Positions 12,202-31,390 of a stretch of 64,000 nucleotides of DNA are shown one piece after another. Under the pieces are notes generated by a model. The model saw nothing but the letters and a program-made list of their open reading frames with translations, ran no database searches and had not been told where the DNA came from. The DNA comes from Christensenellaceae bacterium. Lineage in GTDB: Bacteria > Bacillota > Clostridia > Christensenellales > CAG-138. Positions within the stretch are counted from its first letter, which is position 1. Every line of letters starts with the position of its first letter. A program made the translations under genes and the position numbers. The stretch lies in contig OY762936.1 in NCBI GenBank assembly GCA_963666935.1, forward strand, positions 453,354-517,353. Direction: 5' to 3'.

Positions 12202-12227
12202 CCCATCCCAAAATTCTCTATAAAAAG

Positions 12228-12329
12228 CATTATGGGCCGCACCTTACGGCACGGCTCATAATGCAATGGCGGAGAACATGAGTATTTCATTATGAGCCGC
12301 AGGGGGCGCGGCTGAGCGGTCTATCATTT
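12228..12329. repeat. structured element D/E1: inverted repeat hairpin, degenerate tRNA-Ser 3' fragment (tggcggagaa) and conserved 42-bp motif attatgagccgcN6cgcggctgaRcggtYtatcattt
   Basis: Near-identical copy at 27920-27982. It lies 27 bp after the serine-recombinase fragment's stop codon. Confidence 0.5.
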
Positions 12330-13107
12330 ATCAATCCCAAGGTCTTAAAAATAACCATTTATCCTATCCCTATCCCCGATATTACCTGCTCCACAGGAGG
12401 GGCTTACATAGGCGAAATTATCCGAAAAAGACACCGGGAAGCTACAGAAAATCCGTCTATCTATCCATATCATCGTGACGGTCAGAAAGAAGGCCTCACT
12501 GTGCCACGAATGAGCAAAAAGCGGAAGCAGGAATAGGCCTTCTTTCTTAATCACCGCAACCGGATTACATACAACGACCTGTGCCGGAAATGCGTCCATG
12601 GCTGCAAGCAGAGTTTCCGGGCCGTGATTGTGGACTGCACGCGCTATATTTCCAAACGTGCAAAGATGCAGCAGATGTAACCCGCAGCATTAGCGAGTCG
12701 GAATCTGAAAACAGGAAATAGGTTCCCGGCCTTCTTTTTATCTGTCTGATAAAAGTCCTTGACAATTCGCTAAAACGCATGGCGTGATATTAAAAATCTA
12801 TCATGTTTAAGTTCACAGGCCTTTGGAAAAACGCTATTATGAATAGCGAATTATCCGAGCAAAGGCATGCAAAAAAAACAATTGAGAAGAAAGCTCTCGA
12901 ATACTTTTGGTTGGATAATTCCATAACACGAAACTGTGGCTGGTTTTACTGTGGCTATGGGGAAAGTGTAATCGTCCCCACCTGTCATCACGCATTCTGT
13001 CGTTCTGCGCTTCGTATACGCAAAGCTATTATCTGCGCATACCGTCACAATATAGCCCATAAACGCATAGCATATAACGGAAAACATGTTGAAGGAGACA
13101 ACCTGAT

Positions 13108-13653
13108 ATGTATGATAACAGACTGTACCTGCCTCAAACTGTCAGCGTACCAATGTCGCTGTACAAATCGAAGCAAGGTGAATATTTCGACGGCTATGCG
13201 GGAAAACTTCTTTTTACGGGCCCGGACATGAGCGCATGGGCGGGGCTTTTCAACCCGCCTGATTCACGGGTCAACCTGTTCATTAGCTCGTGGGCGGCCA
13301 CAAGTCTGTACAGCAATTTCCGCATTCAGGTATGGTTCAACCCGGTGCTGCCCGGCAGCCCTGACCTATCTGATAGAGTATCGACAACAAATTTCACGCT
13401 GAATCCACAGCCGAAGCCGAAGGTTCAGCTGCTGTATGCTTCCAACGTTAAAGGCAAACCCGAGGGTGGTATGGAGGCATTCTCATTTCGCGGAGGACCG
13501 CAGAACACGATATATGTGCAGGAAAACGGAAAGTTTATCTTCCCACCGGGCGGCTCATTCGCATTGGTTTTGGCGCACAAAGAGGAGCCTGATGCACGGG
13601 CAGAGGGGCGCATTGCCTTCGGTTGGTATGAGGAGCCGGTATGGAATTGTTGA
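13108..13653 (+). CDS. hypothetical protein
   Basis: RBS gaaggaga sits 8 nt upstream of the ATG. The ORF is 181 aa. I recognise no domain. Confidence 0.35.
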   Translation: MYDNRLYLPQTVSVPMSLYKSKQGEYFDGYAGKLLFTGPDMSAWAGLFNPPDSRVNLFISSWAATSLYSNFRIQVWFNPVLPGSPDLSDRVSTTNFTLNPQPKPKVQLLYASNVKGKPEGGMEAFSFRGGPQNTIYVQENGKFIFPPGGSFALVLAHKEEPDARAEGRIAFGWYEEPVWNC

Positions 13654-14122
13654 TGGAGCGGCCGCCATTTTGGGTGCCTTCCGGATCAGTATGAACGCGT
13701 TCGAAGGTCGAAGACCTCCCAGCACGAGCGAAATGCAGCAAAAATCTGTAAGGCATTAGACCAATAGGGTTTATGCCCTTTTATCATTCGGTTCTGTCCA
13801 CGCTTGAGAACACCGAGTCGGTGTTTTTCACGACAATCAATTGGTCTTGTGGAAAGTTATGCTATGCTTATCTGCTTTTCCATTGCAGAAAACGAGTCCG
13901 TTTCAAAAAAGTATGCTTTAAGAACGGATGCTTTTGGGCGTTATAAACTATTGCTACTGAATTTTTATTAATAAGTTAGATTATGCCACCAAATAAGAAT
14001 ATTCGCTATGTGTCAAGTAAACTGGCAAAAGAGATCGCATAAAAAAATGTGCAGAAGAAGCTTGCAGTATTTTATGTTGTTCAAAGCAAAGGGCATAGCA
14101 ATCCCTGAATACTCAGCAGCTT

Positions 14123-14902
14123 GTGTTGATTTACGAACAGGCAAGCAAAGTCATTTTCGCGAGCGACTTCATACCCAGGAACTCTTTAGTCCATGGCATA
14201 CCAGACAAAGCTTATTTGCGATTCAATCCGGCCAGTGTCTGCGCTCTCCCTCGTATAGAAAAGAAGAATATAAAGCCGTTGAATAAAGAACAAAGCGGAG
14301 CCTTCTTAAAGGCTATTAAAGGCTCTCGCTTCGAGACACTATTCACGCTTGACCTATTCACCGGTATGCGTGAAGGTGAAATACTGGGGCTTATGTGGGA
14401 ATGTGTTGATTTTACTAAAGGCACGATTTATATAAAGCAGCAGCTTCAGAGGGAACGCACGAAAAACGGTAAGTATTACTTTGCGCCTTTGAAAAACGAC
14501 AAGTCAAGAACCATTACTCCGGCTCCATGGATAATGAACCTTTTAAAAGAACATAAGAATAAACAAAAAAGCCACCGTCTTGCTGCAGGCGATACCTGGC
14601 AAGACAGCGGCTTAGTGTTCACAGATGAAATTGGCGGTCACTTTGCTATTCCCACGGTGTATAAGCACTTCAAGAACGCAGCGGCTGCAATTGGTTGCCC
14701 TTCAGCACGTTTTCATGACCTCCGGCATAGTTACACTGTCGCTGCAATCCGCTCTGGAGATGATATCAAGACAATTCAAGATAACCTCGGACATGCCACA
14801 GCTTCATTTACTTTAGACATTTACGGTCATGTTACTGATGAAATGAAAAAGGATAGCGCAGACCGCATGGAGGCATATATAAAGAGCGTAATAAACCGGT
14901 AA
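14123..14902 (+). pseudogene. tyrosine recombinase/phage integrase, N-terminally truncated (catalytic domain only)
   Basis: Catalytic-domain motifs are present: FHDLRHSYTVAAIRSG and LGHATASFTLDIYGHV, giving the R..H..R..Y tetrad region. The core-binding N-domain is missing. It is transcribed toward the adjacent tRNA-Ser fragments. Confidence 0.6.
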
Positions 14903-14966
14903 GGAAAAACTTTTATTTTAGAACGCAAAAATGCCCTGAATTCCGCAGAATTCAAGGCTTTTTTGA

Positions 14967-15500
14967 TGGCGGAGAAGGAGGGATTCGATTTCGGCCATCG
15001 GCAGGCCGAGCTTGCACTTCGTACTGCGCTCGTCGCGCCTGGCACGAAATCCCGGCCTCTAAAAACGCTTCACCGGAGCGTTTTCTTAACGTGGCTTCGA
15101 ATCCCACTCAACAACAGGCACAAAAAAAAACCCGTCTTAAAAACGGGCTCTTCTTTGTGGCGGAGAAGGAGGGATTCGAACCCGCATACAGCCATATTTA
15201 TGCGTATTTTTGCGTTATTTACCGTATGGATATTTGGCTAAAAACAGGCTTTTTTTACTTCGCCCGTGTCATTCAATACAACTGATTGATAAGGGGTAAG
15301 GGGTAAAATAAGGGGTAGAAAATGCGCCCTTCAACTAAACTTTTCTGAAGTAGTTTATCTCCCTATTCTTAATTCTTCGTCTGGCCTAATAGCTTCTTGG
15401 TGCAATCTTCTTTGCTTCGTCTATGCTTCAGATTACTTTAGTTCATGCTTTGTTCAATTTAATACTTACTTCCATAGCAGCCCTTTCTATGATGGGAACT
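14967..15500. repeat. 535-bp direct repeat R1 (copy 2 at 21791-22325), containing two tRNA-Ser 3'-end fragments
   Basis: Nearly identical to 21791-22325, with a few substitutions near the ends. Contains tggcggagaaggagggattcga at 14967-14988 and tggcggagaaggagggattcgaaccc at 15158-15183. Also contains a minus-strand terminator (cccgtttttaagacggg plus T9) and a triple aagggg-ta repeat at 15281-15311. ORFs predicted inside are translation artefacts. Confidence 0.8.
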
Positions 15501-15605
15501 ATGACCTGCCAGTTTCTCCATTAAATGCTGACGACGATTTTGTCCAATCTAATTATGGCGTTATTATTTGCGCTAATCTTCATGATGAACGTAGGTTGCT
15601 TTTTA

Positions 15606-17105
15606 TTAAGAAAACACAAATCCGCGCTCTCGAAATAACTTTATACAAGCATCAACCACTTTACCGTCATATTTTACCCCTCGGTGCATAGCAATCTCAT
15701 TGATTGCTGCATCAATACCCAAAGCTGGCCGGTACGGGCGATGTGACATCATTGCTTCAACAACATCTGCGACAGCCAATATCCTACTTTCAGTAATTAT
15801 TTGGTCTGCTTTCAGTTTCTGAGGATAGCCGCTACCATCCAGTCTCTCATGATGCTGATAAATCATCTCGATAATCTGCTGAGGAAAGTCAATTTCTTTG
15901 ACTATTTCATAGCTATATTCAACGTGACCCTGCAATATTTGATATTCCAGGTTGGATATTTTGCCAGGCTTGTTGAGAATGTCAGAAGGGATGTGAACTT
16001 TACCAATATCATGAATAAGCGCGCCAATCGATATATTATATATGACATCATCCGGTAGTTTCATTTCTTTGGCAATCGCACAAGACAATAACGCTACTCT
16101 CTTTTGATGTCCTGCAGTATATGCATCCTTCAGCTCTCCAATTTTTGATATTGTATTGATTGTTTGCTGCAACCTAAGAAGAAGTTTTTCATTTTTCCTC
16201 GCAAGTTCCTCTGACAGCACATGCAGGTTTTGACTTAACTGTGCAAGATTTTCCGCTGCAAGTTTGCGTTCCGAGATATCAATGCAAAAGGCAAGAATGC
16301 AGTTGTCATCAATTTTTGTACCAAAAAGGTCTATCCAATAATCTTTACTATCTTTTTTTCTAACTAAATATTCTGCAGATAAAATTCCTTTGTCTATAAG
16401 TTCATGAAAATCTGCAAGCCCTTTTTCAATTTGATCAGTTGCAAGGAAATCAGCCACAGATAGGCCTAATACCTCTTTCTTTGTACGCCCCATCATCCGG
16501 CATCCCATTTCATTTACATCAATATATCGGCCTAGAGCGTTAGTCACAAAAACTCCGATTGGGGCCTTTTTGATGTAAGATTTGAAGATATCTTCACTTC
16601 TTCTTAACTTGATTTCAAGCTTTTTCCGTTCGCTAATCTCTTGTTTCAGTTCGCTTGTGCGGTGTTCCACCAACAATTCAAGCTGATCTTTTCGATTGCT
16701 GACAAGTATGTTTCTCTCTTTGATTTTTGCCATTGCAATTAATTGTGTTATTAATACCATGTCATCTATTGGTTTGAAAAGAAATGCCTCTGCTCCTGCT
16801 TCAAAAGCTTTTAGCCGGAGTTGCTGGTCGTCTTCTAAGTCAGTAATAAATAACATTGGAGTAAACTGTAGGCTTTGCTCTTTCTTTAAAATCTGACTTA
16901 TTTTCAAACCATCAGCTTTACTCATAGATATATCAAGCAAAATAACATCAGGGTCATGGTCTTTTGCATATTTTATGCATTGTAATATTTTTGAGGTAAT
17001 GTCAATTTTTGCTCCAGGAAGCGCTTTGGAAATAGTTTCCGCCAAACTTTTTGAATTAGTTATACTATCGCCTAGAATTATAATTTTTAGGTTTCTTTCC
17101 TCCAT
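15606..17105 (-). CDS. response regulator with REC, PAS and HD-GYP (c-di-GMP phosphodiesterase) domains
   Basis: REC motif DVILLDISMSKADGLKI is present. The HD-GYP signature HDIGK ... HHERLDGSGYP is present. RBS ggaggaaagaaat precedes the ATG at 17105. Confidence 0.7.
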   Translation of the reverse strand: MEERNLKIIILGDSITNSKSLAETISKALPGAKIDITSKILQCIKYAKDHDPDVILLDISMSKADGLKISQILKKEQSLQFTPMLFITDLEDDQQLRLKAFEAGAEAFLFKPIDDMVLITQLIAMAKIKERNILVSNRKDQLELLVEHRTSELKQEISERKKLEIKLRRSEDIFKSYIKKAPIGVFVTNALGRYIDVNEMGCRMMGRTKKEVLGLSVADFLATDQIEKGLADFHELIDKGILSAEYLVRKKDSKDYWIDLFGTKIDDNCILAFCIDISERKLAAENLAQLSQNLHVLSEELARKNEKLLLRLQQTINTISKIGELKDAYTAGHQKRVALLSCAIAKEMKLPDDVIYNISIGALIHDIGKVHIPSDILNKPGKISNLEYQILQGHVEYSYEIVKEIDFPQQIIEMIYQHHERLDGSGYPQKLKADQIITESRILAVADVVEAMMSHRPYRPALGIDAAINEIAMHRGVKYDGKVVDACIKLFRERGFVFS

Positions 17106-17195
17106 ATTTCTTTCCTCCAATAATATTTTCCATACCAAGGTGTTGCAAATATAACTTATCACGTTAATCCCACCATAAACATTTGAAAAATCACC

Positions 17196-17408
17196 TCAGC
17201 CACAAAACATACGAGCAACATCGAAAGAACAGGCTTCTGGCTGCGCTTCCATCGCATCTGCCATGGTCTTAAGTTCTTCTAAGTTAATCGTTTCACGCTT
17301 CAGCTTTTTACCGAAGGCCTGCGGCGACTGACCTAACCGTCTAGCCAACTCGGAGACACTGATATTCATCTGTTCACATAGCTGTCGTATCATGTCCGAG
17401 GTTTTCAT
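17196..17408 (-). CDS. XRE-family helix-turn-helix transcriptional regulator
   Basis: MIRQLCEQMNISVSELARRLGQSPQAFGKK is a Cro/C1-type HTH. RBS ggaggaactatt precedes the ATG at 17408. It sits directly upstream of, and is co-oriented with, the HD-GYP gene. Confidence 0.6.
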   Translation of the reverse strand: MKTSDMIRQLCEQMNISVSELARRLGQSPQAFGKKLKRETINLEELKTMADAMEAQPEACSFDVARMFCG

Positions 17409-17592
17409 AATAGTTCCTCCATGTATCAATAAAAACATTATAAATCATTTGGCTAAACAATAATAGCGTGGGCGGCCTTCGCGGGGTGGTTTTTCCACCC
17501 CTCCGCAAAGCGATATATATTGGGCTTTTCCCGATGGGCGTTATTTTCCTCGATCTCAATAAATCCATGCGAAACCAGTTCATTTACCACTT

Positions 17593-18676
17593 TTGCGAAC
17601 CCACCACGTTCTCAAGCAAATTGGCGTGGAAGGGTCCGAAGAAGGCTTAACCACAATCGCCAATACCATATCAGACGCGCTTATAATGGGGGATAAGTCT
17701 GCCATCAATCTCTCTACCCCGAACTACATGGCGCAGGGCATAAACGAACAAGAGGCTGCCAGAAAAGCGTATACCGACGCGGTCAACGGTCTGGCTCTTG
17801 ACACTCTCGGCAGTATGGTATCGGACAGCTTTGCGGGTTCTTTTGGTTCGGCACAGGGCAGGACAAACAACACTGCGCAGGACACAACACAGCCAGTTCA
17901 ACAGGATACGCGCCCTGTACAGCCCATTCACCAAGTTCAGCCAGAAGTGGTACAGCCCGTACAGCCCGTTCCACAGACGATACAGCCAATGGAAATCGCG
18001 CAACCGAATATGGCAGCACAATTCATTGAAACCGCGATTGAAACGGATGGAGCCGAAAATACCCCGGCAATGCAAGAAACCATATGGCAATATCCTGGTA
18101 ATGTTGATCGCGGACTGGTAGATTATGTGAAACAGTCTGCCTCTTCCGAATCCAACTCACTAAAACCCTATGAACTCAATACGGTAAGTGATCGGGCCGC
18201 ATCTGATATCAGAAACAAGTTGAACACATACTGAAACGACACGGCCGAAACGGATTGGCAGATCAAAGTATGTCTGACGTTAATAATATCGGTCGGATTC
18301 AGTATGCGCTTGATAATTACGATGCCGTAGAAGACGGCGGCCGAGTCACCGGATATTCAGAAAGAATCCCCGGGAAAGATCAAAACAGAACTGCCAGAAG
18401 CATCAAGTATTCAAGAAAATTGATGGCACTATGTATGTTGTTGAGGCTGTGCCGGATACCACAAAAAAGACAGTCTATGTAGTTTCTGCATACATAAATA
18501 AAAGAGGATCGTCTTCGCTCCCCAGCTCAAATACGGGGGTGATTACCGAAAACGACGAACTGTTTTTTAATCTCAACCTTAGCTGTGTGGATACTTCTGT
18601 GGCACGTACAGGGCGAAAAGGATATATTTGCACTCGCGAAGCGATTCTCCTGTCGGTAGACAAGGAAACCTTTTAA
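17593..18676 (+). pseudogene. frameshifted remnant ORFs, possibly the C-terminal part of a large polyvalent/conjugative-element protein
   Basis: Three overlapping ORFs in different frames (17593-18234, 18255-18482, 18431-18676). There is no proper ATG or RBS. A Q/P-rich linker is present. Confidence 0.25.
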
Positions 18677-18706
18677 TCCACGACCCCGTCCCCACGGTTA
18701 GCTTGT

Positions 18707-21079
18707 TCAGGTTAGTGAAGTGTCAGCCTGTTCCCGCAACAAATCGGCAAACTGTTCCGGCACAATAGGTCTGCTAAAGTGGAACCCCTGCATCTCGTCA
18801 CAGGACTGATCCTTTAGGTAGTTCATTTGTTCTATTGTTTCGACACCTTCGGCCACAACTGTTAAACCTAAGGTTTCACCCATGGCAATGATAGCATGGG
18901 TAATCGCCTTGTCTTCAGCGTTTTCCGGGACATTACGGATAAATGAACGGTCAATCTTTAGCGTATCAATGGGGAAATGCTTGAGCTGGGCAAGAGATGA
19001 GTATCCTGTACCAAAATCATCAATGGCCAGTCGCACTCCTATACTTTTAATTCTAACTAACACATCCATCATTTTCGTAGGGTTAGTCATTATCATGCTT
19101 TCGGTAATTTCCAATTCCAATAGATTTGGTGCCATACCGGAATCGTTTAGAGCGGCTTTTATATCATCTATCAGATTGTTATCTGCAAGTTGTCGTAATG
19201 ACAAATTTACCGCCATACAGACAGCTGGAAGCCCCTGCTTTTGCCATGCAACGTTTTGAGCGCATGCTGTCTTCAATACCCACTTACCAATTGACACTAT
19301 CATTCCTGTTTCTTCAGCCACTGGGATGAATTGCGTGGGAGTCACTGAACCAAGGTGTGGATTTTGCCAGCGAAGGAGTGCTTCCACGCCGGTTATGATG
19401 CCTGTTTTGAAATTCACTTTTGCTTGATAATGTAAAGAAAGCTCATTTCGTTCAAGCGCAAGCCGTAGATTTGTCTCAATAGCCAAACGTCCTGCTGATT
19501 GCAACTGAATATCTTCGGAGTAAAATTGAAAGTTGTTTTTGCCTTCTTCTTTGGCATAATACATAGCCATATCCGCATGTTTCATCAGTAGTTGTTCGTC
19601 TTCGCCATCCTGAGGGTATATGCTTATGCCAATGCTGGCAGTTACTCGGCATTCGTCACCCAGCAGAACTATTGGTTTATAAGTGCTGGCAAGAATATTA
19701 TTAGCTACAAGTTCTAAATCACTCAACTTGTTAAAGTCCTCAATCAAAATAATAAATTCATCTCCACCCTGACGGCTGACAACATCCTCTGCGCGTAGTG
19801 TTTGCTTATATCGCATGGCAATCTCTTGCAGCAGTTGATCTCCTGCCTCGTGACCCTTAGTGTCGTTGATTATCTTGAAACGGTCAAGGTCAATGAAGAA
19901 AACTGCTAATTTCCGTTTGTGACGTTTCGCAGTCTGGATCGAATGGTTAAGAATTTGGGAAAGCATCAATCGGTTGGGCAACCCCGTCAGGCTATCATGT
20001 GTGGCGAGATATTGAATCTTTCCCTCGGCGATTTTATATTCGGTAACATCTTTGGATGCGAGGACAAATCCTATCCGGGTATTATAATTATCGCTGCATT
20101 CGGAAATTGATAGAATTATTGGAATATTCACACCTGCGCTAGAAACCATGAACGTTTCCACATTCCGTATAGGACATGAGTTCAGCAATTCGGAAATGCT
20201 TGTATTGGTTGATTCGCCATCCGAGAGGAAGAGTCTTCCCAGCGGTTCTCCACCCAATTCCTTTTGGGTGTATCCCAGCAGCCTTTGCGTTTCCGGATTA
20301 ATACTTAATATGATTCCTTTTTGATCTGTAAGAATTACAGAATCGATGATTGTCTGAAATAAATTCTCTGCAATTAAAGATGGTGACAGTGTCATTAATT
20401 TATATTTTATAATAGCATATAAAATTCCCAGTTGCCAGATCATCATTCCTGCTGCAATCATATCCGGGATTTCGGCTTTGATGATTATATTTGCACACAC
20501 ATTATACCCCATGGTAAACAAAAAGGAAGTTGCGCCCGAAAAAAATATTATTTTAGTCTGTTTTCGTTCCCTTGTTGAGGTAGCTCTTCTTAGCACAGAA
20601 TAACATAAGTACATGTTTATTGTCCCTAAGATTCCTATGAAAATCATTAAAATCCAATACCATGCTGACGCTGCATTAGCAACTAATCTCCATCCGTATT
20701 GATTATAAATCACATCACTAAAGTATAAATTTTGTTTTATTGCCTGAAATATAAAAATAATTGCGGGCAAATAAAGCACAATGTAAATCCACCATTTTTT
20801 TAAAATGTTATCCTTTTTCGTATATACAAGAAGAAAGTGAAGAGCAAGGCTCGAAAATGTGCAAAATCCAATAGACGCTATCGTATTCCAAATGATACAA
20901 CTGGCTTTATCAGGCATGATTATTGAAACAGCGGTAGCAAACGACCATATAAAAAGACTTAGATTAAGCACAAAATACGTCCTGTTTAATGCTGCTTTTC
21001 TGTCCTTGAAGAGCATAACAACGCCCATAGTAAGATAAATAATACTAAATAAAAACAATAACTGTGAAAAAAAGTTCAT
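18707..21079 (-). CDS. membrane sensor diguanylate cyclase/phosphodiesterase (multi-TM N-domain, PAS, GGDEF, EAL)
   Basis: About 8 N-terminal TM helices. GGDEF motif RQGGDEFIIL is present. EAL motifs EALLRW and DDFGTGYSSL are present. RBS ggag sits 8 nt upstream of the ATG. Confidence 0.75.
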   Translation of the reverse strand: MNFFSQLLFLFSIIYLTMGVVMLFKDRKAALNRTYFVLNLSLFIWSFATAVSIIMPDKASCIIWNTIASIGFCTFSSLALHFLLVYTKKDNILKKWWIYIVLYLPAIIFIFQAIKQNLYFSDVIYNQYGWRLVANAASAWYWILMIFIGILGTINMYLCYSVLRRATSTRERKQTKIIFFSGATSFLFTMGYNVCANIIIKAEIPDMIAAGMMIWQLGILYAIIKYKLMTLSPSLIAENLFQTIIDSVILTDQKGIILSINPETQRLLGYTQKELGGEPLGRLFLSDGESTNTSISELLNSCPIRNVETFMVSSAGVNIPIILSISECSDNYNTRIGFVLASKDVTEYKIAEGKIQYLATHDSLTGLPNRLMLSQILNHSIQTAKRHKRKLAVFFIDLDRFKIINDTKGHEAGDQLLQEIAMRYKQTLRAEDVVSRQGGDEFIILIEDFNKLSDLELVANNILASTYKPIVLLGDECRVTASIGISIYPQDGEDEQLLMKHADMAMYYAKEEGKNNFQFYSEDIQLQSAGRLAIETNLRLALERNELSLHYQAKVNFKTGIITGVEALLRWQNPHLGSVTPTQFIPVAEETGMIVSIGKWVLKTACAQNVAWQKQGLPAVCMAVNLSLRQLADNNLIDDIKAALNDSGMAPNLLELEITESMIMTNPTKMMDVLVRIKSIGVRLAIDDFGTGYSSLAQLKHFPIDTLKIDRSFIRNVPENAEDKAITHAIIAMGETLGLTVVAEGVETIEQMNYLKDQSCDEMQGFHFSRPIVPEQFADLLREQADTSLT

Positions 21080-21203
21080 GGTTTACTCCACTTCTTAATT
21101 AATGCCATATTTCGCTTTGTTAATAAGATATAGAACATTTCCGTTCATGGGTGGATCCGTTAATTTTTACATTGTCTGCTTACCTATTATAATACCACTT
21201 TTG

Positions 21204-22325: not shown

Positions 22326-22674
22326 AAAAATACTCCGGCTACCGATTAAGACTATGCTTGCACTAAAAGTTACCGAATAAATAATGCCGTCTATAAAAGA
22401 ATGCATCCCAATGCCTACTAACGCGGTTATGCCAAAAGCCAGATCGGGTTGTTTCGTTTTATATTTTATAAATTTATTACTAAAGAACATGAACATAAAA
22501 CCTGCTAAGGCAGCCAGACCCGCGTTGGGATTTTTTTATGGCTTGGGGAAAAGCCATAACTAGAGGAGCGGAAATTAAAACGCCAGCCGCGAAACATATA
22601 AAATGCTCCTTAGCTCTTTCTGCCCAAACTCTATTTCTATAAACAAACAAAATTCCAAGGCTATTTACTATCAT
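22296..22674 (-). pseudogene. ZIP-family (ZupT-like) metal transporter, frameshifted
   Basis: Two adjacent ORFs in different frames. The HSFIDGI motif resembles the ZIP TM4 HSxxEG signature. A T-homopolymer lies at the junction (~22530). Confidence 0.3.
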
Positions 22675-22747
22675 TGCACTTAATGCAAAAGTCGCAATCC
22701 ATGTGAATGTACTAAATGTTGGCCTTTTCTTATCTCCTTTTAACTGG

Positions 22748-23944
22748 TCAATTTTTTAAAGGTGAATTAATTGTTAGGCCAAGTTTTTTAAGCGCTATTT
22801 CAGGAGTCTCTTTATCTGTGACAATTATTTCAATATTTGAGTCAGAAAAAACATAGGCCGGTCCTTTACTGCTAAAGTCTTTTTTGAGTAGGACTAGATC
22901 AACCATATTCCTTACCAGAAATTCTGCTGCTAATATTCCTTTGCTTTTTTCAATTTTACAAAAGGGATTGTCAATAATCTCTGTCTTATTAGAGGCCTTG
23001 TCTCCAGCCTTAAATGTTACAAGCATAAAATATAATGCTTCCCCAAAATGAGCACTGATCGAAGCTTGATCATCTGTCAACGGTATGGCATAAATGATTT
23101 CTTCCTTTTGTAGTGGCTCATAATGGATAAGTATCCGGTCTATGTTCTTGATTTCAACTTTGATATGGTCCTCTATTTTATCTACAAGGTAATGAGCTTT
23201 GTCTAAGTCGTGCGTTTTGATAATTAAACTTGCTTCAATAAACTTAAACCGTCCTGAATTACGGCCTGTTAGGGATTTCAGCTCGATTACTTGAGGTGTA
23301 TCTACAATGATCTTTTCCACCTTGCTAAGTGTTTTATAATCTAAGGAAGCGTCCAAAAGGACTCGGATCCCATCCAGTAATATTTCCAGTCCAGTCTTTG
23401 CAATAAATCCAACAACAATGAAAGCCGCTACCTTATCAAATTGATATCCCAGTATGTTGGCAATTATTGCTGCCAAAACAGCTGTATTGCTTAACACGTC
23501 CGTACGGATATGAGCAGCGTCAGCTAATAACATGGGCGAATTTATTTTTTTCCCAATTTTTTTCTCATATCTGGAAAACCAGAAGGTGATCACCATTGCA
23601 ACGACTACACTAAGTATTGCAAGCCAAGAATTTTGCAGTGTTCCCGAACTTTTTGTCATAACCTCCCGCACAATCTCATAACCCGTGTAGAGGATAATTA
23701 AGGAAATTAAAACAGACATTAAATTTTCAACCTTATAGAGGCCATATGGAAATCTCTTGGTTTTGCGTTTTGCAATCTTCAATCCTACAAAAACAGTTGA
23801 AGATGCAACAAAATCCGCAAAGCTGTGAAATGCTTCAGCTTTTAATGCAATACTGCCAGACGCAGATGCAGCCAAATATTTTACGCCAAATAAAAGAAAA
23901 TTAATAGCCATCGATAGCAGTGCCGTTCTTTCGCTTATCTCCAT
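22748..23944 (-). CDS. cation diffusion facilitator (CDF) transporter fused to a C-terminal NifX/NafY-like (dinitrogenase FeMo-cofactor-binding fold) domain
   Basis: CDF HxxxD motifs are present in two TM helices (HSFADFVAS and AAHIRTDVLSN). C-terminal ISAHFGEALYFMLVTF matches the PF02579-type FG..A..F core. Confidence 0.6.
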   Translation of the reverse strand: MEISERTALLSMAINFLLFGVKYLAASASGSIALKAEAFHSFADFVASSTVFVGLKIAKRKTKRFPYGLYKVENLMSVLISLIILYTGYEIVREVMTKSSGTLQNSWLAILSVVVAMVITFWFSRYEKKIGKKINSPMLLADAAHIRTDVLSNTAVLAAIIANILGYQFDKVAAFIVVGFIAKTGLEILLDGIRVLLDASLDYKTLSKVEKIIVDTPQVIELKSLTGRNSGRFKFIEASLIIKTHDLDKAHYLVDKIEDHIKVEIKNIDRILIHYEPLQKEEIIYAIPLTDDQASISAHFGEALYFMLVTFKAGDKASNKTEIIDNPFCKIEKSKGILAAEFLVRNMVDLVLLKKDFSSKGPAYVFSDSNIEIIVTDKETPEIALKKLGLTINSPLKN

Positions 23945-24247
23945 AAAATCACACCCTTTCAAAAACATTGATTATCTATAAATCATTTTAACCTATAGGT
24001 ATCATATCCCTTATAATTTATCGCAACCACCCCGCTGTCTTTTTTCAGATCATCTAAAATTACATTGATATTGTTACAGCTTCTCGACTTTAGAAATCCT
24101 TCAATTTCGAACTGGTTCATAGGATGACGCTTTATAATGCTCACGATTCTGTAATTTGTCGATCTTTTGCAAGGCCGGCAAAAGGTGTCCCAAAATCCGG
24201 CATTTCGTTTACCTCCTTAATTCTTACTCGCTGTAGACCTTAACCTA

Positions 24248-24922
24248 TTATTTCTTTTCTTTATTAAAGCATAAGAACCAATCAAGGCAATATTTATTTT
24301 CATCTTGGTTTTCCATTCTCTCCTTGGCAACTCCACATGATCCAGGTGTTGGAATAATCGTATCATCTCCCGGCCTCCAGTTGGCTGGTGTGGCAACTGA
24401 ATCTTTATCGGCCTTTTGTAAAGCAAGTATTATTCTCTTGATTTCATCAAAATTACGCCCACAGGATGCCGGGTAGTATAGGATAGTTCGAATAACCGCC
24501 TTTGGGTCGATGACAAATACTGCACGCACTGCCTGAGTGGTAGACTGAGATTGGATCATTCCATATTTATTGGCTACTTCCATTTTGATATCTTCAATTA
24601 AAGGGAATTTCACTTCAACTTTCTCCAGGCCATTCCATTTTAACTCCTGTATCTTTCTGAGCCATGCTATGTGCGCATAAAGTGAGTCTACTGAAAGTCC
24701 GATAAGCTCTGTATTCAATGCTTTGAAGTCTTCTGCCATTGACGCAAAAGTCATAAATTCAGTGGTACAAACTGGTGTAAAATCGGCTGGGTGAGAAAAC
24801 AAGATCACCCATTTACCTTTGAAGTCATCAGGAAAATTGATTGCGCCTTGCGTTGTTACTGCTTTAAACGCTGGCGCCAAGTCCCCAATTAATGGCATTC
24901 TATTTACATTCATTTCTTCCAT
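24248..24922 (-). CDS. 1-Cys peroxiredoxin (Prx6-like, AhpC/TSA family)
   Basis: FTPVCTTE peroxidatic-Cys motif is present. RBS aaggagg sits 8 nt upstream of the ATG at 24922. Confidence 0.75.
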   Translation of the reverse strand: MEEMNVNRMPLIGDLAPAFKAVTTQGAINFPDDFKGKWVILFSHPADFTPVCTTEFMTFASMAEDFKALNTELIGLSVDSLYAHIAWLRKIQELKWNGLEKVEVKFPLIEDIKMEVANKYGMIQSQSTTQAVRAVFVIDPKAVIRTILYYPASCGRNFDEIKRIILALQKADKDSVATPANWRPGDDTIIPTPGSCGVAKERMENQDENKYCLDWFLCFNKEKK

Positions 24923-25042
24923 GATTATTACCTCCTTTAATTTTATAAAAAAATATGGTATTTGCCCAAAAGAGATACATACACCGTTTTCCATTGTTTT
25001 GTCATCTACTAGCATTGCTATTTTTATTAGGTATCCTCCTCC

Positions 25043-25387
25043 TTATCGTATTGTTCTTCTTCCACAACCATGCATCCGCTCAATTTCGTTGTAAAGTTTA
25101 TAATCTCCGCCTTCAATCTTAAGAACGTTCCCATTAACTAAGGACTCGGCGATCTTACTTCGTGCATCCCTGTAAATATTTTGAACAGTAGCACGTGCAA
25201 CCTGCATCTTTTCAGCACATTCTTCCTGAGTCAAACCTTCAAGATCTATAAGGCGGATAGCTTCATACTCTTCAACTGTCATCATAATAATTTCGTTTTC
25301 TATATCTGATCCATTAAGCGGTCCATATAGGTTGCTCTTTGGCAGGCAACATACTTTTCTCCATTTTCTTGGTCTTGACATTACCAA
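25043..25387 (-). CDS. DUF134 (UPF0251) family putative DNA-binding regulator
   Basis: N-terminal [10 protein letters not shown] and a central HTH-like segment [28 protein letters not shown] are present. RBS gaggtg precedes the ATG. Confidence 0.55.
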
Positions 25388-25429
25388 TTCACCTCATTCA
25401 AGCAACATAAGTAACAGGGGTATCCCCTG

Positions 25430-25726
25430 TCACTTATTAACCTCTGGCATATTTTCTAATTGTCTACTAACAATATCTAGCCTTTTTTGAAGTAACTCTT
25501 TTTGCTCTGTAAGAATCTCTTTGTCAGTTAACACAACAGTTTCTCCAGCAAAAGATCTTCCAAATCCTCGTAGGCATCCATAGCCCGCTCCCCGACCTAA
25601 TCCTCTGCCACTTACTCGACCAAATCCAGCGCCATATCCGCCTACATTAGCTCCATTGCAAACTCCTGAGACTCTTCCGCTCATTGCTCCACGACCCATT
25701 GGGCCTGTTCCATCTCTTCCTGGCAT
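25430..25726 (-). CDS. Gly/Arg-rich small protein (DUF5320-like) with C-terminal coiled coil
   Basis: N-terminal MPGRDGTGPMGRG followed by GRG/GYG repeats containing Cys. C-terminal helical KEILTEQKELLQKRLDIVSRQLENM. Confidence 0.45.
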   Translation of the reverse strand: MPGRDGTGPMGRGAMSGRVSGVCNGANVGGYGAGFGRVSGRGLGRGAGYGCLRGFGRSFAGETVVLTDKEILTEQKELLQKRLDIVSRQLENMPEVNK

Positions 25727-25749
25727 AGTATCTTTTCCTTTCGATTTGA

Positions 25750-25986
25750 TTATGTTCTAATCATTGTCGTACCGCATTTTGGGCACTTCATACTTGCACA
25801 AGGTTCCGCACGTAGATGTTTTACTTTTTCACCACAGTTTGGGCATTCACAATAACCTTCTGGACCTGCACTTGCAGGACCTCCCATTTTTCCTCTACCA
25901 GCTGCTGTTCCAGTTTGTCTGCCTATACCGGCACCTCTGCCTGCTCCAGCTGGGCCTGTTCCGTCTCTTCTTAACATATCTACCAC
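25750..25986 (-). CDS. Gly/Arg-rich small protein (DUF5320-like N-terminus) with C-terminal CxxC...CxxC zinc ribbon
   Basis: N-terminal MLRRDGTGPAGAGRGAGIGR. C-terminal CECPNCGEKVKH...CPKCGTTM. RBS aggaggtg precedes the ATG. Confidence 0.45.
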   Translation of the reverse strand: MVDMLRRDGTGPAGAGRGAGIGRQTGTAAGRGKMGGPASAGPEGYCECPNCGEKVKHLRAEPCASMKCPKCGTTMIRT

Positions 25987-26023
25987 CTCCTAATGGTTTT
26001 TGGCATATGCTATTTATAATTTC

Positions 26024-26051
26024 ATTATAGACTGTTTTTGGCATATGTCAA
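26024..26051 (-). promoter_or_regulatory. near-consensus sigma-A promoter (TTGACA-16-TATAAT) for the DUF5320/DUF134/Prx/CDF operon, bracketed by direct-repeat putative operator catatgccaaaaac x2
   Basis: On the minus strand: ggttaTTGACAtatgccaaaaacagtcTATAATgaaattataaatagcatatgccaaaaacc, then RBS aggaggtg and the ATG at 25986. Confidence 0.5.
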
Positions 26052-26244
26052 TAACCGTTTTGGAATAAGCAAAATGAAACAGAGCCGGCACTCAAGGAAT
26101 TATTTCCTCTAGAGACGGCCAGTTTTGTACAGGTGATACTGTATTAAGGACTATTCGTCATTAACTTCTGCGAGCTGTGGCCGCTGATCGATTGTCAGTA
26201 CCACGCCTTCACTCTCTAATGCATATCCGATCAATTGGAAATAG

Positions 26245-26290
26245 CGATTTAACTGCAACAAAGAGCAATTAAAATCTATAAGGAGTATTT
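26245..26290. repeat. 46-bp direct repeat (copy 1) cgatttaactgcaacaaagagcaattaaaatctataaggRgtattt with internal imperfect palindrome TTAACTGC-N8-GCAATTAA
   Basis: Second copy at 27826-27871. The two copies flank the patatin gene. Confidence 0.7.
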
Positions 26291-26479
26291 ACCTTTATTA
26301 AACAAAAAAAAAGACTACCAAACATGGCAATCAAAATATTTTAATGCAAAAATTCAATAGTTTAGCTTAATAATATACCACCAGAAACCAATTCATAATA
26401 ACAATACAACTTTCTACAATAATATTATGAATCTATTTTCGAATTTGCTTTGATAAGCCTCTGCTGATGAACTATCTCT

Positions 26480-27325
26480 TCAATTACTTTTCTTAAATAT
26501 TTTATGGGCTAGCTTTTCCCAGTAGTTCGGAGTCTTTCCTTCGAGAAGTTTTTTAATATCATCAATCATTCCAAGTGCTGCGGCTCTGCCTATGCCAATG
26601 CTTTCTTCCACTTTCGCAAATTCAGTTGGGCCGATTTTACTTGTATCTACCACAATTGTAATATCTGCATCGGTTTTCATTCCACGCATGGCCTCCCATT
26701 GCTGAAGCTCAAAAGAATATATCATAATATCAACGATGTTTTTAGGTGAAGAACGGAGCTCTCCACGGTAACCAACATCTACTGCTATCACAATATCTGC
26801 GCCCATACTGCGCGCTGCATCTACCGGTACCCTTACAAGCACTCCACCGTCTACATAAGTCTTGCCGTCAAATATTACGGGTTCGAACACTCCAGGAAGG
26901 GAGATACTAGCACGAACCGCATCTGTCGTTTTGCCTGAATCAAATATCTTAACCTTACCATCTTCCAAGCAGGCGGATATTGTGGCAAACGGTATTTTCA
27001 TTTCATCTATATTGCTATCGCCAGTCAATGCAGTGATAATGGTATCTATATTATTACCTTTTATAAGACCAATGCGCGGCAGAGTAACATCAATAAGTTT
27101 TCCGTATCCATTGCTGAAGGTATCGGACACAATGGTATGTATTTCTTCAGATGAAATGCCGCTTGCGAACATGCAGCCTATTACAGCGCCCATACTGCAT
27201 CCGGCAATAAAGTCTATAGGCACACCATGTTCTTCCAATACCTCCAACACACCTATATGAGTCAGTCCTCTGGCAGCACCTGCTCCAAGAGCCAATCCGA
27301 TTTTAACTTTCTTATTCATTTTCAT
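26480..27325 (-). CDS. patatin-like phospholipase
   Basis: GxGxxG oxyanion motif (LALGAGAARG), GxSxG nucleophile motif (GCSMGAVIG) and a downstream DGG Asp motif are present. Confidence 0.75.
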   Translation of the reverse strand: MKMNKKVKIGLALGAGAARGLTHIGVLEVLEEHGVPIDFIAGCSMGAVIGCMFASGISSEEIHTIVSDTFSNGYGKLIDVTLPRIGLIKGNNIDTIITALTGDSNIDEMKIPFATISACLEDGKVKIFDSGKTTDAVRASISLPGVFEPVIFDGKTYVDGGVLVRVPVDAARSMGADIVIAVDVGYRGELRSSPKNIVDIMIYSFELQQWEAMRGMKTDADITIVVDTSKIGPTEFAKVEESIGIGRAAALGMIDDIKKLLEGKTPNYWEKLAHKIFKKSN

Positions 27326-27825
27326 TCGCTCCTGTTGCTTTATTTATTACAATTCATTCAAAAAATTATTGCAAGATAAAGTGCTAATAAGCATTGAATT
27401 ATTATCCTTATCGCTTGAATTAAATTTTCGAGTTCTTCCGGTGTGCAAGTAAAAACGTTCAAGAAAACATATTAACCAAAAATATTTCTCCTGACTGCTC
27501 ATGCTTGGGAATATATCGAAACCCGCATTGTATCCGGTCTATTAAGATTCGTATAATATGTATAACCTGTTACAGTGTGTTCCTTTAATATAATATTTAA
27601 AGGTATATGGTTGGAATTGTCAAATTTGGCTCTTATCTACAGGCAAGATAGTTGCAATGCCTGGAGAGAATACGAGCGGCCGGTAGGGTTCTGCTACGGA
27701 TAGCCCGGGGATATTTAATAACCCTAGTATCAATATTTCTATCCTTAGGAGAACCTTAATGCGATAACACATGATAAAGAAAAAACCGCAGACAGCGATG
27801 CTAATCACACTATTGCCTGCGGTTA

Positions 27826-27871
27826 ACGATTTAACTGCAACAAAGAGCAATTAAAATCTATAAGGGGTATT
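27826..27871. repeat. 46-bp direct repeat (copy 2) of 26245-26290
   Basis: Identical except for one substitution. Confidence 0.7.
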
Positions 27872-27919
27872 TTAACAAAGAAAAAAAGCCAGTTTTCCCA
27901 GATAAACAGGCTTTTCTTG

Positions 27920-27982
27920 TGGTGGAGAAGGAGGGATTATCATTATGAGCCGCAAAGAGCGCGGCTGAACGGTTTATCATTT
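27920..27982. repeat. element C/E2: tRNA-Ser 3'-end fragment (tggtggagaaggagggatt) fused to conserved motif attatgagccgcaaagagcgcggctgaacggtttatcattt
   Basis: Copy of the arrangement at 12267-12329. The discriminator base differs (A vs G). Confidence 0.6.
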
Positions 27983-28294
27983 GCCAACCCCACGATCTGC
28001 ATTATTGCTGCCGAAAACGTCGCACGGTAAACAAGAACCGGGCGGCGTTTTTTTATGATAGTAACCCAACGCATAATAAGCATGATGTTATTGTGGTTGG
28101 CTGCATACGCCGGCACAATAGATACCGCGAATGTGGCCCTGCGCTCTACACAATCATGTTTGGATTTTCCTAATTACAAATGCGTGCAACAATAGTCGAC
28201 TACTGTTTACGGACATCTGTCAACCTGACAATAAAAGACTTTAATTTTGCTTAATGCCAGACTGCCCGAAAAGTGCTCCGGCCGTATTAACACA

Positions 28295-28305
28295 CCCCCC
28301 CCCCC
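28295..28305. repeat. homopolymeric C11 tract followed by an extended -10 (TGgTATAAAT) about 230 bp upstream of the FG-GAP/C11 gene pair
   Basis: cacaCCCCCCCCCCCgcaaag ... gagtaTGgTATAAATaa. Confidence 0.5.
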
Positions 28306-28575
28306 GCAAAGTACTGGGCAGGAGAGTATGGTATAAATAATAAGAATATTTACAATTGCCGCTGCAATCAATCGGCTGGCACCATCGAAAGTATAATGCT
28401 AAGTTCATGCAAATATTAATTCAATTAAATGAAATGTATGCATATTGAAAGTACAGGAATCCGCTATTGCTGAACATATACCAACTTTTTCGGGAAGCCA
28501 GTTGTATATGGATGTAACTGGAATGTAAAAGCCTGAATATTATAAAGGGTGTGAGTCTATTGAGGAGGGGAAATT

Positions 28576-29631
28576 ATGAATGCATCTTTTGCTCCGGCTG
28601 TGTTTTATGGCACCGATCGCGGTCCCTACGGAATCGTTGTTGCTGATTTCACCGGCACGGGCGTTATAGATTTGGCCACGGCATGTAACCAAAATGATAG
28701 TGTGGCGGTATTACTTGGGAATGGCAACGGTACATTTAAAACGATGGTGACGTACGCTGTTGGAAGCAATCCCACCGCTGTCACTGCGGCTGATTTTAAT
28801 GGGGACGGCAATATGGATTTGGCTGTAACAGATTCAAACGGCGGTGATATTGCGGTTCTTTTCGGTAACGGTGATGGTACTTTTGGATCTGCTCATGCCT
28901 TGTCGGCGACCTCGAACCCGCTCAGTATCGTATCGGCCGACTTTAGGAATAACGGCAATATGGATCTGGCCATAGTCGATGCGGGCGCCTCCGTAGTAGG
29001 CGTCCTGCTTGGCAACGGCAATGGTACTTTTGCGGCAATGACACTTTATCCAATAAGTGCTGTGGGCGTTGGAATCATAGCTGCTGATTTTAACGGCAAC
29101 GGCAAAATGGACTTGGCGGTAACCTGTGATGATGGGCAGGTTAGAATCTTGCTTGGAAACGGTAACGGCACGTTTATGGATGCAGTAGCTTACCCCGCGG
29201 GCAATGACGTTGTATATGCCACTGCCGCCGACTTTGACAACGATGGTAAAATGGATCTTGCCGTAACAAATATGAGTACCAATAAAGTTGCGATCCTGCT
29301 TGGGAATGGCGATGGTACTTTTCGAAGCCCAACATTTTTCGATGCCGGATTTTATCCATGCGGCATCGTGTCCGCAGATTTTAACGGAGAAGGTAAAATG
29401 GATCTGGCAGTAACAAATATAGGCGATAACCGTGTCGCAATTTTGCTTGGAAACGGCGACGGTACGTTCCAGAGCTGTCAATTTTATAATGCAAACGACT
29501 ATCCGGCCAATATTGTAACGGAAGACTTTAACAGGGACGGTAAAAAAGACTTGGCCGTGATTGGTTTCTATTCCAATAATGTCGGAGTATTCATCAACAC
29601 AACGCCGGTTCGCGGCCTGCCTTCTTTATAG
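28576..29631 (+). CDS. FG-GAP/VCBS repeat 7-bladed beta-propeller protein, no signal peptide (predicted cytoplasmic)
   Basis: Seven repeats of the pattern ADFNGDGxMDLAVT...LLGNGNGTF. RBS ggagg precedes the ATG. The N-terminus is not hydrophobic. Confidence 0.7.
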   Translation: MNASFAPAVFYGTDRGPYGIVVADFTGTGVIDLATACNQNDSVAVLLGNGNGTFKTMVTYAVGSNPTAVTAADFNGDGNMDLAVTDSNGGDIAVLFGNGDGTFGSAHALSATSNPLSIVSADFRNNGNMDLAIVDAGASVVGVLLGNGNGTFAAMTLYPISAVGVGIIAADFNGNGKMDLAVTCDDGQVRILLGNGNGTFMDAVAYPAGNDVVYATAADFDNDGKMDLAVTNMSTNKVAILLGNGDGTFRSPTFFDAGFYPCGIVSADFNGEGKMDLAVTNIGDNRVAILLGNGDGTFQSCQFYNANDYPANIVTEDFNRDGKKDLAVIGFYSNNVGVFINTTPVRGLPSL

Positions 29632-29724
29632 AGGAGGGCATTACTTAAAGTTATTTTAATCGTTCAGCCGGGTTTTATAGAATAACTTACTATCACTAAG
29701 GAGCGATTAAAAGGAGCGATTAAA

Positions 29725-30918
29725 TTGAGTATGCGGCAGAGAGCCGACTGGACGATTTTAATTTATGCTGACGGCAACAACGATCTCGAACCTGAAATGC
29801 AGCGGGTTTTGCATGATGCAGAAACGGTTGGATCAAATTTAAATGTGAACGTGGCGATACAAATTGGCAGAGCGGAATTTGAGCTTGTGAAGCTTATAAG
29901 GCCTGGCGCTAATTTGAAAGATGATCATAGTTGGAGCGGCGTCAGGCGCTATTTTGTTACCCAAGGCGATTCCGAATTGGTTGAAAGCCTGAATAAAGCC
30001 AATATGGCAGATCCCAGGCAGCTTTATCAGTTTGTTAAATGGGGTATTCTGTCTTATCCGGCGGAAAGATACATGCTGGTATTAAGCGGCCATAGTTATC
30101 ACTGCGTTGGCATGATAACCGATTACAGCGAGAATGCCCCCTGTATAATGGGACTTCCGGAAATGGTTAACGCCATCAATATGGCCGCAAACGAAACGGA
30201 CAAGAAAATCGATGTTCTCGTGATAGACGCTTGTTACTCCAATTCGTTAGAGCTCCTTTATGAATTTGGTATGGATGAAAATCATGCGGTTCAAAATGTC
30301 ATTACCTATATTGTTAACGGGCCGATAGAGGGGTTGCCCTATAATCACGTCATTAACTTGGTGCAGGCAAATTGTATTGAAGATACTGAGGTGCTAATCA
30401 AAAATCTCATACAAAATCTATCGCATAATTTAGTTTCCTTTAGAATAGACCATAAGGCGCTTCTGCAAATCAAGCAGTTATTTAGTGATAAATCTGCCGA
30501 GTGCATTTCAAAAAACGCGGGTGATGCCATGCTGGATCATCAAACACTGGTTATGGAACAAAGGCGTATCATTCAGTTCATATCCAGCCGGGCACTGCCT
30601 ATTTATATTTATTATTATAAACAAAGTGATAACAACCAATTAATTATGGTAAAAGGCGGTATCGGCAGTCGTTTCAAAATAGAGGAAAATTACTACCGGT
30701 TGGGATTTGCGCAGAATAATTGTTGGACCCGCTTGCTAAACGATAAACCGGTCGATTTCGATAAGGTAAATGCCATGCAAAAAGAAAGTATGCAGCCGCT
30801 GGAAATGAGTCCTCAGGAAGTATACGAGAGTATTGCTATCATTAAACCAGGTCTGGAGCAAGCACAAATCAGTGATATCTTAAATAGGCTTTATCAGCAT
30901 AAGAATTGGCTTTTATGA
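29725..30918 (+). CDS. clostripain-like cysteine peptidase (MEROPS C11, clan CD), no signal peptide
   Basis: WTILIYADGNNDLE N-terminal block is present. His (LSGHSYHC) and Cys (LVIDACYSNS) catalytic-dyad blocks are in C11 order. TTG start at 29725 or ATG at 29731. A tandem 13-mer aaggagcgattaa x2 precedes the start. Confidence 0.7.
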   Translation: MSMRQRADWTILIYADGNNDLEPEMQRVLHDAETVGSNLNVNVAIQIGRAEFELVKLIRPGANLKDDHSWSGVRRYFVTQGDSELVESLNKANMADPRQLYQFVKWGILSYPAERYMLVLSGHSYHCVGMITDYSENAPCIMGLPEMVNAINMAANETDKKIDVLVIDACYSNSLELLYEFGMDENHAVQNVITYIVNGPIEGLPYNHVINLVQANCIEDTEVLIKNLIQNLSHNLVSFRIDHKALLQIKQLFSDKSAECISKNAGDAMLDHQTLVMEQRRIIQFISSRALPIYIYYYKQSDNNQLIMVKGGIGSRFKIEENYYRLGFAQNNCWTRLLNDKPVDFDKVNAMQKESMQPLEMSPQEVYESIAIIKPGLEQAQISDILNRLYQHKNWLL

Positions 30919-31055
30919 TCAGCAGACGGTAACGGAGCTCATGAATAATCCCGGCCGCTAAAACGCTCTACCGTAGCGTTTTTTAACGCGGCTTTGAATC
31001 CCGCCATATAAATAAGTTGCCAAAACAAAGGGCACCCTATGGGTGCCCTTTGTTT

Positions 31056-31148
31056 TGGCGGAGAAGGAGGGATTCGAACCCTCGCGCCAGTTACCCCAGC
31101 CTACTCCCTTAGCAGGGGAGCCCCTTACAGCCACTTGGGTACTTCTCC
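31056..31148 (-). tRNA. tRNA-Ser (anticodon GCU)
   Basis: Reverse complement ggagaagtacccaagtggctgtaaggggctcccctGCTaagggag...gcgagggttcgaatccctccttctccgcca. It has a long variable arm and a 7-bp acceptor stem with G73 and encoded CCA. It is followed by hairpin terminator gggcaccctatgggtgccc. Confidence 0.85.
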
Positions 31149-31181
31149 ACAAAACTGTATCACAAAGTAAAAATGTATCGT

Positions 31182-31270: not shown

Positions 31271-31390
31271 TTAATGAGCCTTTGTATTATAGCAAAGTCA
31301 AGGAGCCGGTGTCAATATGGTTGTGTTTTGTTTTGCGTTGTATTAGAATATTTATGTAGACAAATCAGCTAATTTTCGTGGAGGTAAGAT

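Follow-up and report, generated by a model that had tools for sequence, protein, structure and literature searches.

Tandem cargo blocks between copies of a tRNA 3' end: a probable decayed composite island at tRNA-Ser(GCU) of a Christensenellaceae bacterium

The window analyzed here, a 64,000-nucleotide (nt) stretch of the genome of a Christensenellaceae bacterium (GenBank assembly GCA_963666935.1, contig OY762936.1, positions 453,354 to 517,353), carries an intact tRNA-Ser(GCU) gene followed, on the side of its 3' end, by an array of gene blocks separated by orphan copies of that 3' end (Table 1). The tRNA and its upstream neighbor, tRNA-Ser(UGA), form a pair that was also found in contigs L036, L081, L083, L094, and L100 and that marks the conserved core side of the locus. 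The array extends over window positions 12277-31055 and its blocks are named X, Z, W, and Y from the tRNA outward; 2 copies of a repeated module, each containing a short gene-less unit (S), separate Z from W and W from Y.

Copies of the tRNA end were sought with the last 25 and 16 nt of tRNA-Ser(GCU), allowing mismatches, and then with a scan anchored at the 3' end, and the chance expectation was obtained from dinucleotide-preserving shuffles. The 6 orphan copies reported in the initial annotation were recovered at the same coordinates and lie far above chance, with 0.00 and 0.03 matches expected for the 25-mer and the 16-mer, respectively. All of them (10 to 26 nt) are on the strand of the tRNA, end precisely at its CCA end, and are followed by a hairpin and a T-run. 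The most distal copy, which matches the tRNA over its final 10 nt (TTCTCCGCCA), is not significant by itself and was accepted because the related contig L081 joins the intact tRNA to exactly the same following sequence; it is probably the original tRNA end, displaced along with its original downstream hairpin. This hairpin (CATTATGAGCCG...CGGCTCATAATG) contains a motif of approximately 13 nt, GCGGCTCATAATG, that is common to the distal arms of X and Y, so that an inverted repeat flanks the 12267 copy (window 12201-12345). An 11-nt match to the tRNA end (CTTCTCCGCCA) at 7912-7922 on the minus strand, near a drop in GC content, was dropped as a candidate for an additional junction: located within a coding sequence, it has neither a hairpin nor similarity to the element arms and is probably due to chance.

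Table 1. Features of the tRNA-Ser(GCU) locus, with positions in the window unless a contig is named.
Feature	Position	Strand	Evidence or remark
tRNA-Ser(GCU), intact	31056-31148	-	ARAGORN; Rfam tRNA 56.1 bits; target of integration at its 3' end (attB/attL core)
tRNA-Ser(UGA)	31182-31270	-	ARAGORN; Rfam
tRNA 3'-end copy, X/Z junction	27920-27938	-	19 nt, 1 mismatch; terminator hairpin behind
tRNA 3'-end copy	21982-22007	-	26/26 nt
tRNA 3'-end copy	21791-21812	-	22/22 nt
tRNA 3'-end copy	15158-15183	-	26/26 nt
tRNA 3'-end copy	14967-14988	-	22/22 nt
tRNA 3'-end copy, distal junction	12267-12276	-	3'-anchored scan (anchored at CCA end); L081 comparison
Module copy 1	14967-15501	-	22-nt copy 14967-14988, S 14989-15157, 26-nt copy 15158-15183, distal arm 15184-15501
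Module copy 2	21791-22324	-	22-nt copy 21791-21812, S 21813-21981, 26-nt copy 21982-22007, distal arm 22008-22324
Unit S	14989-15157 and 21813-21981	-	167-169 nt, gene-less, flanked by tRNA-end copies
Block X	27939-31055	.	3.1 kb, GC 0.44; tRNA-proximal arm 30919-31055, distal arm 27939-27998
X: FG-GAP repeat protein	28576-29631	+	Pfam
X: C11 peptidase	29725-30918	+	Pfam
Block Z	22325-27919	.	GC 0.38-0.39
Z: CDF transporter fused to FeMo-cofactor-binding domain	22748-23968	-	Pfam
Z: peroxiredoxin	24248-25015	-	Pfam
Z: DUF134	25043-25387	-	Pfam
Z: DUF5320	25430-25726	-	Pfam; third-codon-position GC 0.23
Z: patatin	26480-27325	-	Pfam
Block W	15502-21790	.	GC 0.40
W: response regulator with PAS and HD-GYP domains	15606-17162	-	Pfam
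W: HTH protein	17196-17438	-	Pfam
W: unannotated open reading frame	17593-18234	+	Third-codon-position GC 0.51
W: 7TM-PAS-GGDEF-EAL protein	18707-21079	-	Pfam
Block Y	12277-14966	.	2.7 kb, GC 0.45; distal arm 12277-12345
Y: DUF6143 protein	13108-13653	+	Pfam
Y: 5'-truncated tyrosine integrase	14123-14902	+	Pfam PF00589; PHROGs
Large serine recombinase, C-terminal fragment, outside the array	11581-12201	+	Zn_ribbon_recom, DUF4368 (Pfam); integrase (PHROGs)
Low-GC stretch with methyltransferase	8001-11523
Phage tail-fibre, baseplate, and endolysin-like genes; S8 peptidase with PG-binding and NlpC/P60 domains	1-7783		PHROGs
Tandem comparison	L093 11180-12400 vs L094 10800-11125

The boundaries of the array were defined by comparison with 2 related metagenome contigs, L081, located through the 94%-identical protein of the adjacent SPFH gene, and L100, a sister of L081 (93-95% identical). 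L081 aligns to window positions 31055-34575 (84% identity) and 11524-12276 (91.6%; L081 8911-9664), and the 2 alignments share 11 bp of the tRNA end, the intact tRNA of L081 directly abutting the homologue of the window sequence from 12276 leftward. Thus, the approximately 18.8 kb between positions 12277 and 31055 are an insertion exactly at the tRNA 3' end, and the empty-site comparison suggested in the initial annotation places the junction exactly at the tRNA-end copies. In L100, of which positions 7055-13189 correspond to window 28434-34588, the tRNA is followed by the FG-GAP and C11-peptidase genes of X, with window 28434-31055 (2.6 of the 3.1 kb of X) conserved at 87% identity, and neither Z, W, and Y nor orphan tRNA-end copies are present within 9.6 kb. 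Island content consequently differs in all 3 genomes (none in L081, X only in L100, and the full array in the window), rather than being the same set of fragments at identical positions, which would have argued against serial integration. A scan of genome contigs with the SPFH protein yielded relatives of at most 74% identity, of which L036 alone had kept the tRNA pair, with no shared DNA downstream; these were set aside as too distant to represent an empty site.

Comparison of the window with L100 also bears on the age of X. Identity at third codon positions is 0.69 for the SPFH gene and 0.67 for the next core gene, but 0.83 for the FG-GAP gene and 0.94 for the C11 gene of X; in noncoding DNA, the corresponding values are 0.58 for the spacer between the 2 tRNAs and 0.89 for the X arm. 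The higher similarity of X than of the core at third positions indicates that X was exchanged more recently than the lineages split. It also counts against the possibility that the array is ancestral, having been present before this lineage separated from L081 and L100, in which recombination of the tRNA with the distal copy would have removed it. Such a deletion between direct repeats would leave exactly the junction seen in L081, and 3 genomes do not prove polarity; however, the composition of the array is strongly non-host, and the different states of the sister contigs L081 and L100 at this site would require several independent losses plus gains, so that we consider an ancestral array very unlikely.

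Four of the orphan copies belong to a larger repeated structure. In a self-comparison, 14967-15501 and 21791-22324 emerged as the 2 copies of a 535-bp direct repeat, 95.7% identical overall, with 100% identity over the first 289 nt (14967-15255) from the CCA end of the 22-nt copy and approximately 94% over the next 245 nt. One edge of the repeat coincides exactly with the CCA terminus of the 22-nt core and would represent a site-specific junction, whereas homology fades gradually at the other edge, as might be expected of the decaying homology of 2 related element arms. In the orientation of the tRNA, the module consists of a shared distal arm of approximately 320 nt with 3 CCCCTTA motifs, the 26-nt copy, S, and the 22-nt copy; the motifs repeated in the arms of the array may serve as integrase-binding sites. 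Because the 14967/15158 and 21791/21982 pairs are inside one repeat, the 4 copies are not 4 independent scars and both pairs record one event. Thus, the proposal that each copy is a separate attachment site (att) scar does not hold, and independent events are fewer than copies, about 4 to 5 by an approximate count. Judging from its anatomy, the module points to a probable insertion of a composite, made of an element and a neighboring mini-unit, or to a site-specific duplication.

The 535-bp module does occur as a duplicated pair, which could suggest that the repeats arose by ordinary segmental duplication or homologous recombination, unrelated to site-specific integration. This is extremely unlikely, considering that every copy ends at the CCA end of the tRNA on the tRNA's strand, that the edge of the repeat is at the same position, that the copies separate segments with no mutual similarity, and that an integrase with relatives located at tRNA-Ser occupies the canonical position.

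Tyrosine integrases generally target the 3' ends of tRNA genes. The truncated integrase of block Y has a complete PF00589 catalytic domain (1.8e-21 in Pfam) and is an integrase by PHROGs; its 3' end faces the 14967 copy, 64 nt away. Its homologues are 393-400 amino acids long and possess an N-terminal PF14659 domain, whereas the upstream frames in the window are closed in a six-frame reading, indicating that approximately 135 N-terminal residues are missing. Pfam and PHROGs comparisons of the open reading frames examined, of at least 60 amino acids, detected no further gene for a recombinase, a relaxase, or transfer in the array. Hence, the initial annotation was correct both in describing a truncated integrase aimed at the 14967 copy and in finding no intact integrase in the array. 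Blocks X, Z, and W, flanked by tRNA-end copies and devoid of recombinase, relaxase, and transfer genes, resemble in these respects what is known as cis-mobilizable elements (CIMEs).

Genomic context was retrieved for 4 full-length relatives of the integrase, and 2 of them, P0125 (69% identical, L083) and P0133 (68%, L094), are found in the arrangement int(+), tRNA-Ser(GCU)(-), tRNA-Ser(UGA)(-), which is the same geometry as in the window. The prophage located directly at tRNA-Ser(GCU) in L094 is also present, at 99.99% identity, in L093, where a second integrase-bearing element lies between the prophage and the tRNA side and an orphan tRNA-end copy of approximately 26 nt is left. L093 thus represents a present-day tandem of 2 elements at tRNA-Ser(GCU) in another Clostridia lineage. 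Relatives of the integrase among viral contigs were at most 30% identical and were set aside, and viral contigs gave no matches to the patterns of the X/Y distal arm, the Z/W arm, or the S motif. Apart from the tRNA itself, the array and S had no phage or plasmid matches.

The composition of the array is foreign relative to the host core. GC content is 0.553 in the core (32.6 kb right of the tRNAs) and 0.38-0.45 in the blocks, and GC content at third codon positions (GC3) is 0.67-0.72 in core genes and 0.23-0.59 in array genes (0.31-0.39 in the genes of W and Z, apart from the unannotated open reading frame of W and DUF5320 of Z [Table 1], 0.45-0.46 in X, and 0.44-0.59 in Y). The low-GC segments described in the initial annotation are therefore real, although their contrast with the core had been overstated (approximately 35% versus 58%, compared with the measured 38-45% versus 55%). 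Self-comparison showed no relationship between the cargo segments separated by tRNA-end copies. The distal arms of X (near 27920) and Y (near 12267) are 77-83% alike, and the copies bounding the blocks differ in length (19, 26, 22, and 10 nt). The differing lengths of tRNA identity, together with the differing arms, indicate that several element types contributed. The HD-GYP gene of W is 88% identical at the nucleotide level to a gene on contig L101, which has a GC content of approximately 45%; the match is limited to the gene and its context in L101 consists of ordinary genes, with no tRNA and no island, which would fit a lower-GC donor pool and the capture of gene-sized cargo.

Heterogeneity of the blocks is also relevant to whether assembly of the complete 18.8-kb array took place in a different host, followed by a single entry into this lineage, as a composite, at the tRNA. 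Transfer of whole composites is documented in other systems (PMC5704250), the 535-bp module indicates that composites move or duplicate, and L081, the only full comparison, is all-or-none. By contrast, the presence of X alone beside the tRNA in L100, where it is younger than the core by synonymous identity, and the differences in GC3 and tRNA-end length between the blocks point to multiple sources and events, at least as regards X and the remaining blocks, and render acquisition in a single step unlikely.

It is highly probable that the region 12277-31055 represents a composite genomic island that arose through site-specific recombination at the tRNA-Ser(GCU) 3' end and has since decayed. Elements with an attachment site matching the tRNA end would insert at the intact tRNA, each newcomer bringing a new tRNA 3' end and its own terminator and shifting older residents, with a partial copy, away from the tRNA. 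Following the rule that newcomers use the intact tRNA, X, next to it, would be the youngest and Y the oldest block, and the recent exchange of X agrees with this order. At least 1 step would have moved a composite, made of a block with its distal arm, the 26-nt core, and S; its recombination at the 22-nt core would have produced the 535-bp repeat. The composite circle may have formed when the tRNA recombined with the 22-nt core and may then have integrated at a site already holding a sister arrangement, or, alternatively, the module may have originated by site-specific unequal exchange. Subsequently, recombinases would have been lost from all blocks except Y, leaving 4 cargo blocks with genes for cyclic di-GMP signaling, metal and redox functions, a phospholipase, and a protease, which would now resemble cis-mobilizable remnants, movable only with an integrase provided in trans. 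The perfect 22- and 26-nt copies are intact enough for such use by a trans-acting integrase, which may be encoded elsewhere in the genome. Considering also the signs of recent exchange in X, the claim of the initial annotation that the array is probably fixed goes further than the data. Collectively, the absence of the insertion from L081, its variable content, and its foreign composition indicate that the integrase-driven accumulation and decay of elements at a tRNA hotspot proposed in the initial annotation is right in kind.

Several observations weigh against this reconstruction. X in L100 has no tRNA-end copy at its far side and homology stops at 28434, approximately 500 bp before the 27920 copy, so that X is not proven to be a discrete excisable unit. 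Among the relatives compared, no genome with an intermediate array (for example, W-S-Y without Z) was found, and serial arrival in this lineage is accordingly deduced from the anatomy of the array rather than observed. The simple arrival of 2 diverged elements does not explain 100% identity over 289 nt next to approximately 94% over the rest of the 535-bp repeat; the perfect stretch needs gene conversion or a shared recent origin. The best match of W elsewhere is not in an island, and no autonomous relative of X, Z, or W was found. Finally, the other 2 integrase relatives, P0136 and P0131, which represent 2 other clades and are 67-68% identical, are not adjacent to a tRNA; target choice probably varies within the integrase family, and the fragment lacking the N-terminal part would not reveal its target specificity.

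Sequences related to S occur at further sites. The 110 nt directly behind the intact tRNA (30947-31055) are 74% similar to the start of S, and the same stretch is also present in L100. Moreover, one metagenome contig matching the S motif, L092, carries tRNA-Ser(GGA) followed by a terminator and a 167-nt sequence (1380-1546) that is 76% identical to S, behind which there is a 16-nt copy of the 3' end of tRNA-Ser(GGA) itself. S is therefore a gene-less unit conserved at 2 different serine isoacceptors, each in a different organism, and flanked at both by repeats of the tRNA end. The proximal 110 nt of S include the terminator, a box resembling an inverted T-arm, an invariant hairpin (AAAACGCT...AGCGTTTT), and GGCCGGGATT, to which the full S adds a short distal arm. 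S has no match in Rfam at E values up to 0.1 and none by ARAGORN. An interpretation of S, or of the sequence following the tRNA, as a small RNA or as the remnant of a tRNA on the reverse strand was dropped, there being no Rfam or ARAGORN match and the invariant hairpin giving no covariation in 3 independent copies. From its structure, S could be either the fused arms of a deleted element, now hitch-hiking with its neighbors, or a mobile mini-element. That S is a miniature integrative element consisting of att sequences only, a counterpart of miniature inverted-repeat transposable elements that spreads among tRNA-Ser isoacceptor genes through borrowed integrases and composites, is a tentative proposal and unlikely.

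Further features were noted within the blocks. Z contains a 49-nt direct repeat (26242-26290 and 27824-27872; 96% identical, with sharp edges) that brackets the patatin segment. Each copy comes directly after a T-run and lies upstream of genes on the minus strand, so that the repeat might represent a common promoter or operator or, alternatively, a junction lacking the tRNA-end copy. In the noncoding distal part of X, just past the end of the homology with L100, there is a run of approximately 12 G on the minus strand (28295-28310; C on the plus strand), which may be a slippage-prone tract.

The flank beyond the array also carries mobile DNA. The serine recombinase fragment left of the 12267 copy is 91.6% identical at the nucleotide level to its counterpart in L081, compared with approximately 84% for the core; in L081 (8058-9711), the same end lies directly against the tRNA, its reading frame running into the tRNA 3' end, and the gene is part of an element that also encodes a relaxase and MobC. 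The region 1-7783, still farther from the tRNA, looks like the end of a prophage. Thus, at least 31 kb of mobile DNA lie behind the tRNA.

Arrays of cassettes without their own recombinases are known from other chromosomal integration sites. In staphylococci, composite arrays of staphylococcal cassette chromosome (SCC) and pseudo-SCC elements at orfX (rlmH) contain recombinase-less cassettes between repeated integration-site sequences, and these can be mobilized only by recombinases acting in trans. The recombinases of SCC (Ccr) are of the serine type, and its target is a protein-coding gene. The present locus resembles these arrays in gathering recombinase-less cassettes at one chromosomal site but differs from them in recombinase and target, and the 2 systems have no sequence relationship.

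A further parallel is provided by the accretion of CIMEs in Streptococcus thermophilus. In the scheme laid out in a review of the ICESt1/ICESt3-related islands (ICE, integrative and conjugative element) of this species and of streptococcal integrative and mobilizable elements (PMC5704250, citing Pavlovic 2004 and Bellanger 2011), an element integrates at its target and decays to an att-flanked, gene-poor remnant, a CIME, further elements accrete, and whole composites can excise and move. As in S. thermophilus, the blocks described here follow one another at the 3' end of a single target gene, are bounded by att sequences and mostly devoid of integration genes, the newest element would lie next to the intact target, and there is indirect evidence of a composite moving as a unit. 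Unlike in S. thermophilus, the host is an uncultured member of the Clostridia, tRNA-Ser(GCU) serves as the target, the array retains no genes for conjugation or mobilization, one of the "elements" (S) is gene-less and only approximately 167 nt long, and mobilization is judged from sequence alone. The Asn tDNA hotspots of Klebsiella pneumoniae (PMC4891358) share with this locus the direct repeats of a tRNA 3' end, the foreign GC content, an integrase at the tRNA-side junction, and variable content; here, however, the elements are tiny (2.7-6.6 kb) and integrase-less, and the array is more fragmentary than typical tandems of pathogenicity islands.

The locus is thus a new example of a well-described phenomenon, the tandem accretion of decayed elements, and, with the possible exception of S, leaves existing knowledge of integrative elements unchanged. 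It provides a clean and well-delimited case of a tRNA gene in an uncultured Clostridia lineage that gathers small cargo blocks, which then lose their mobility genes. The 3-genome comparison, covering an empty site, X only, and the full array, yields exact boundaries that are useful for annotation, and the repeated module constitutes sequence-level evidence that composites, not just single elements, move as units. If S proves to be an independently spreading mini-element, it would be the sole part of the locus able to change what is known about integrative elements.

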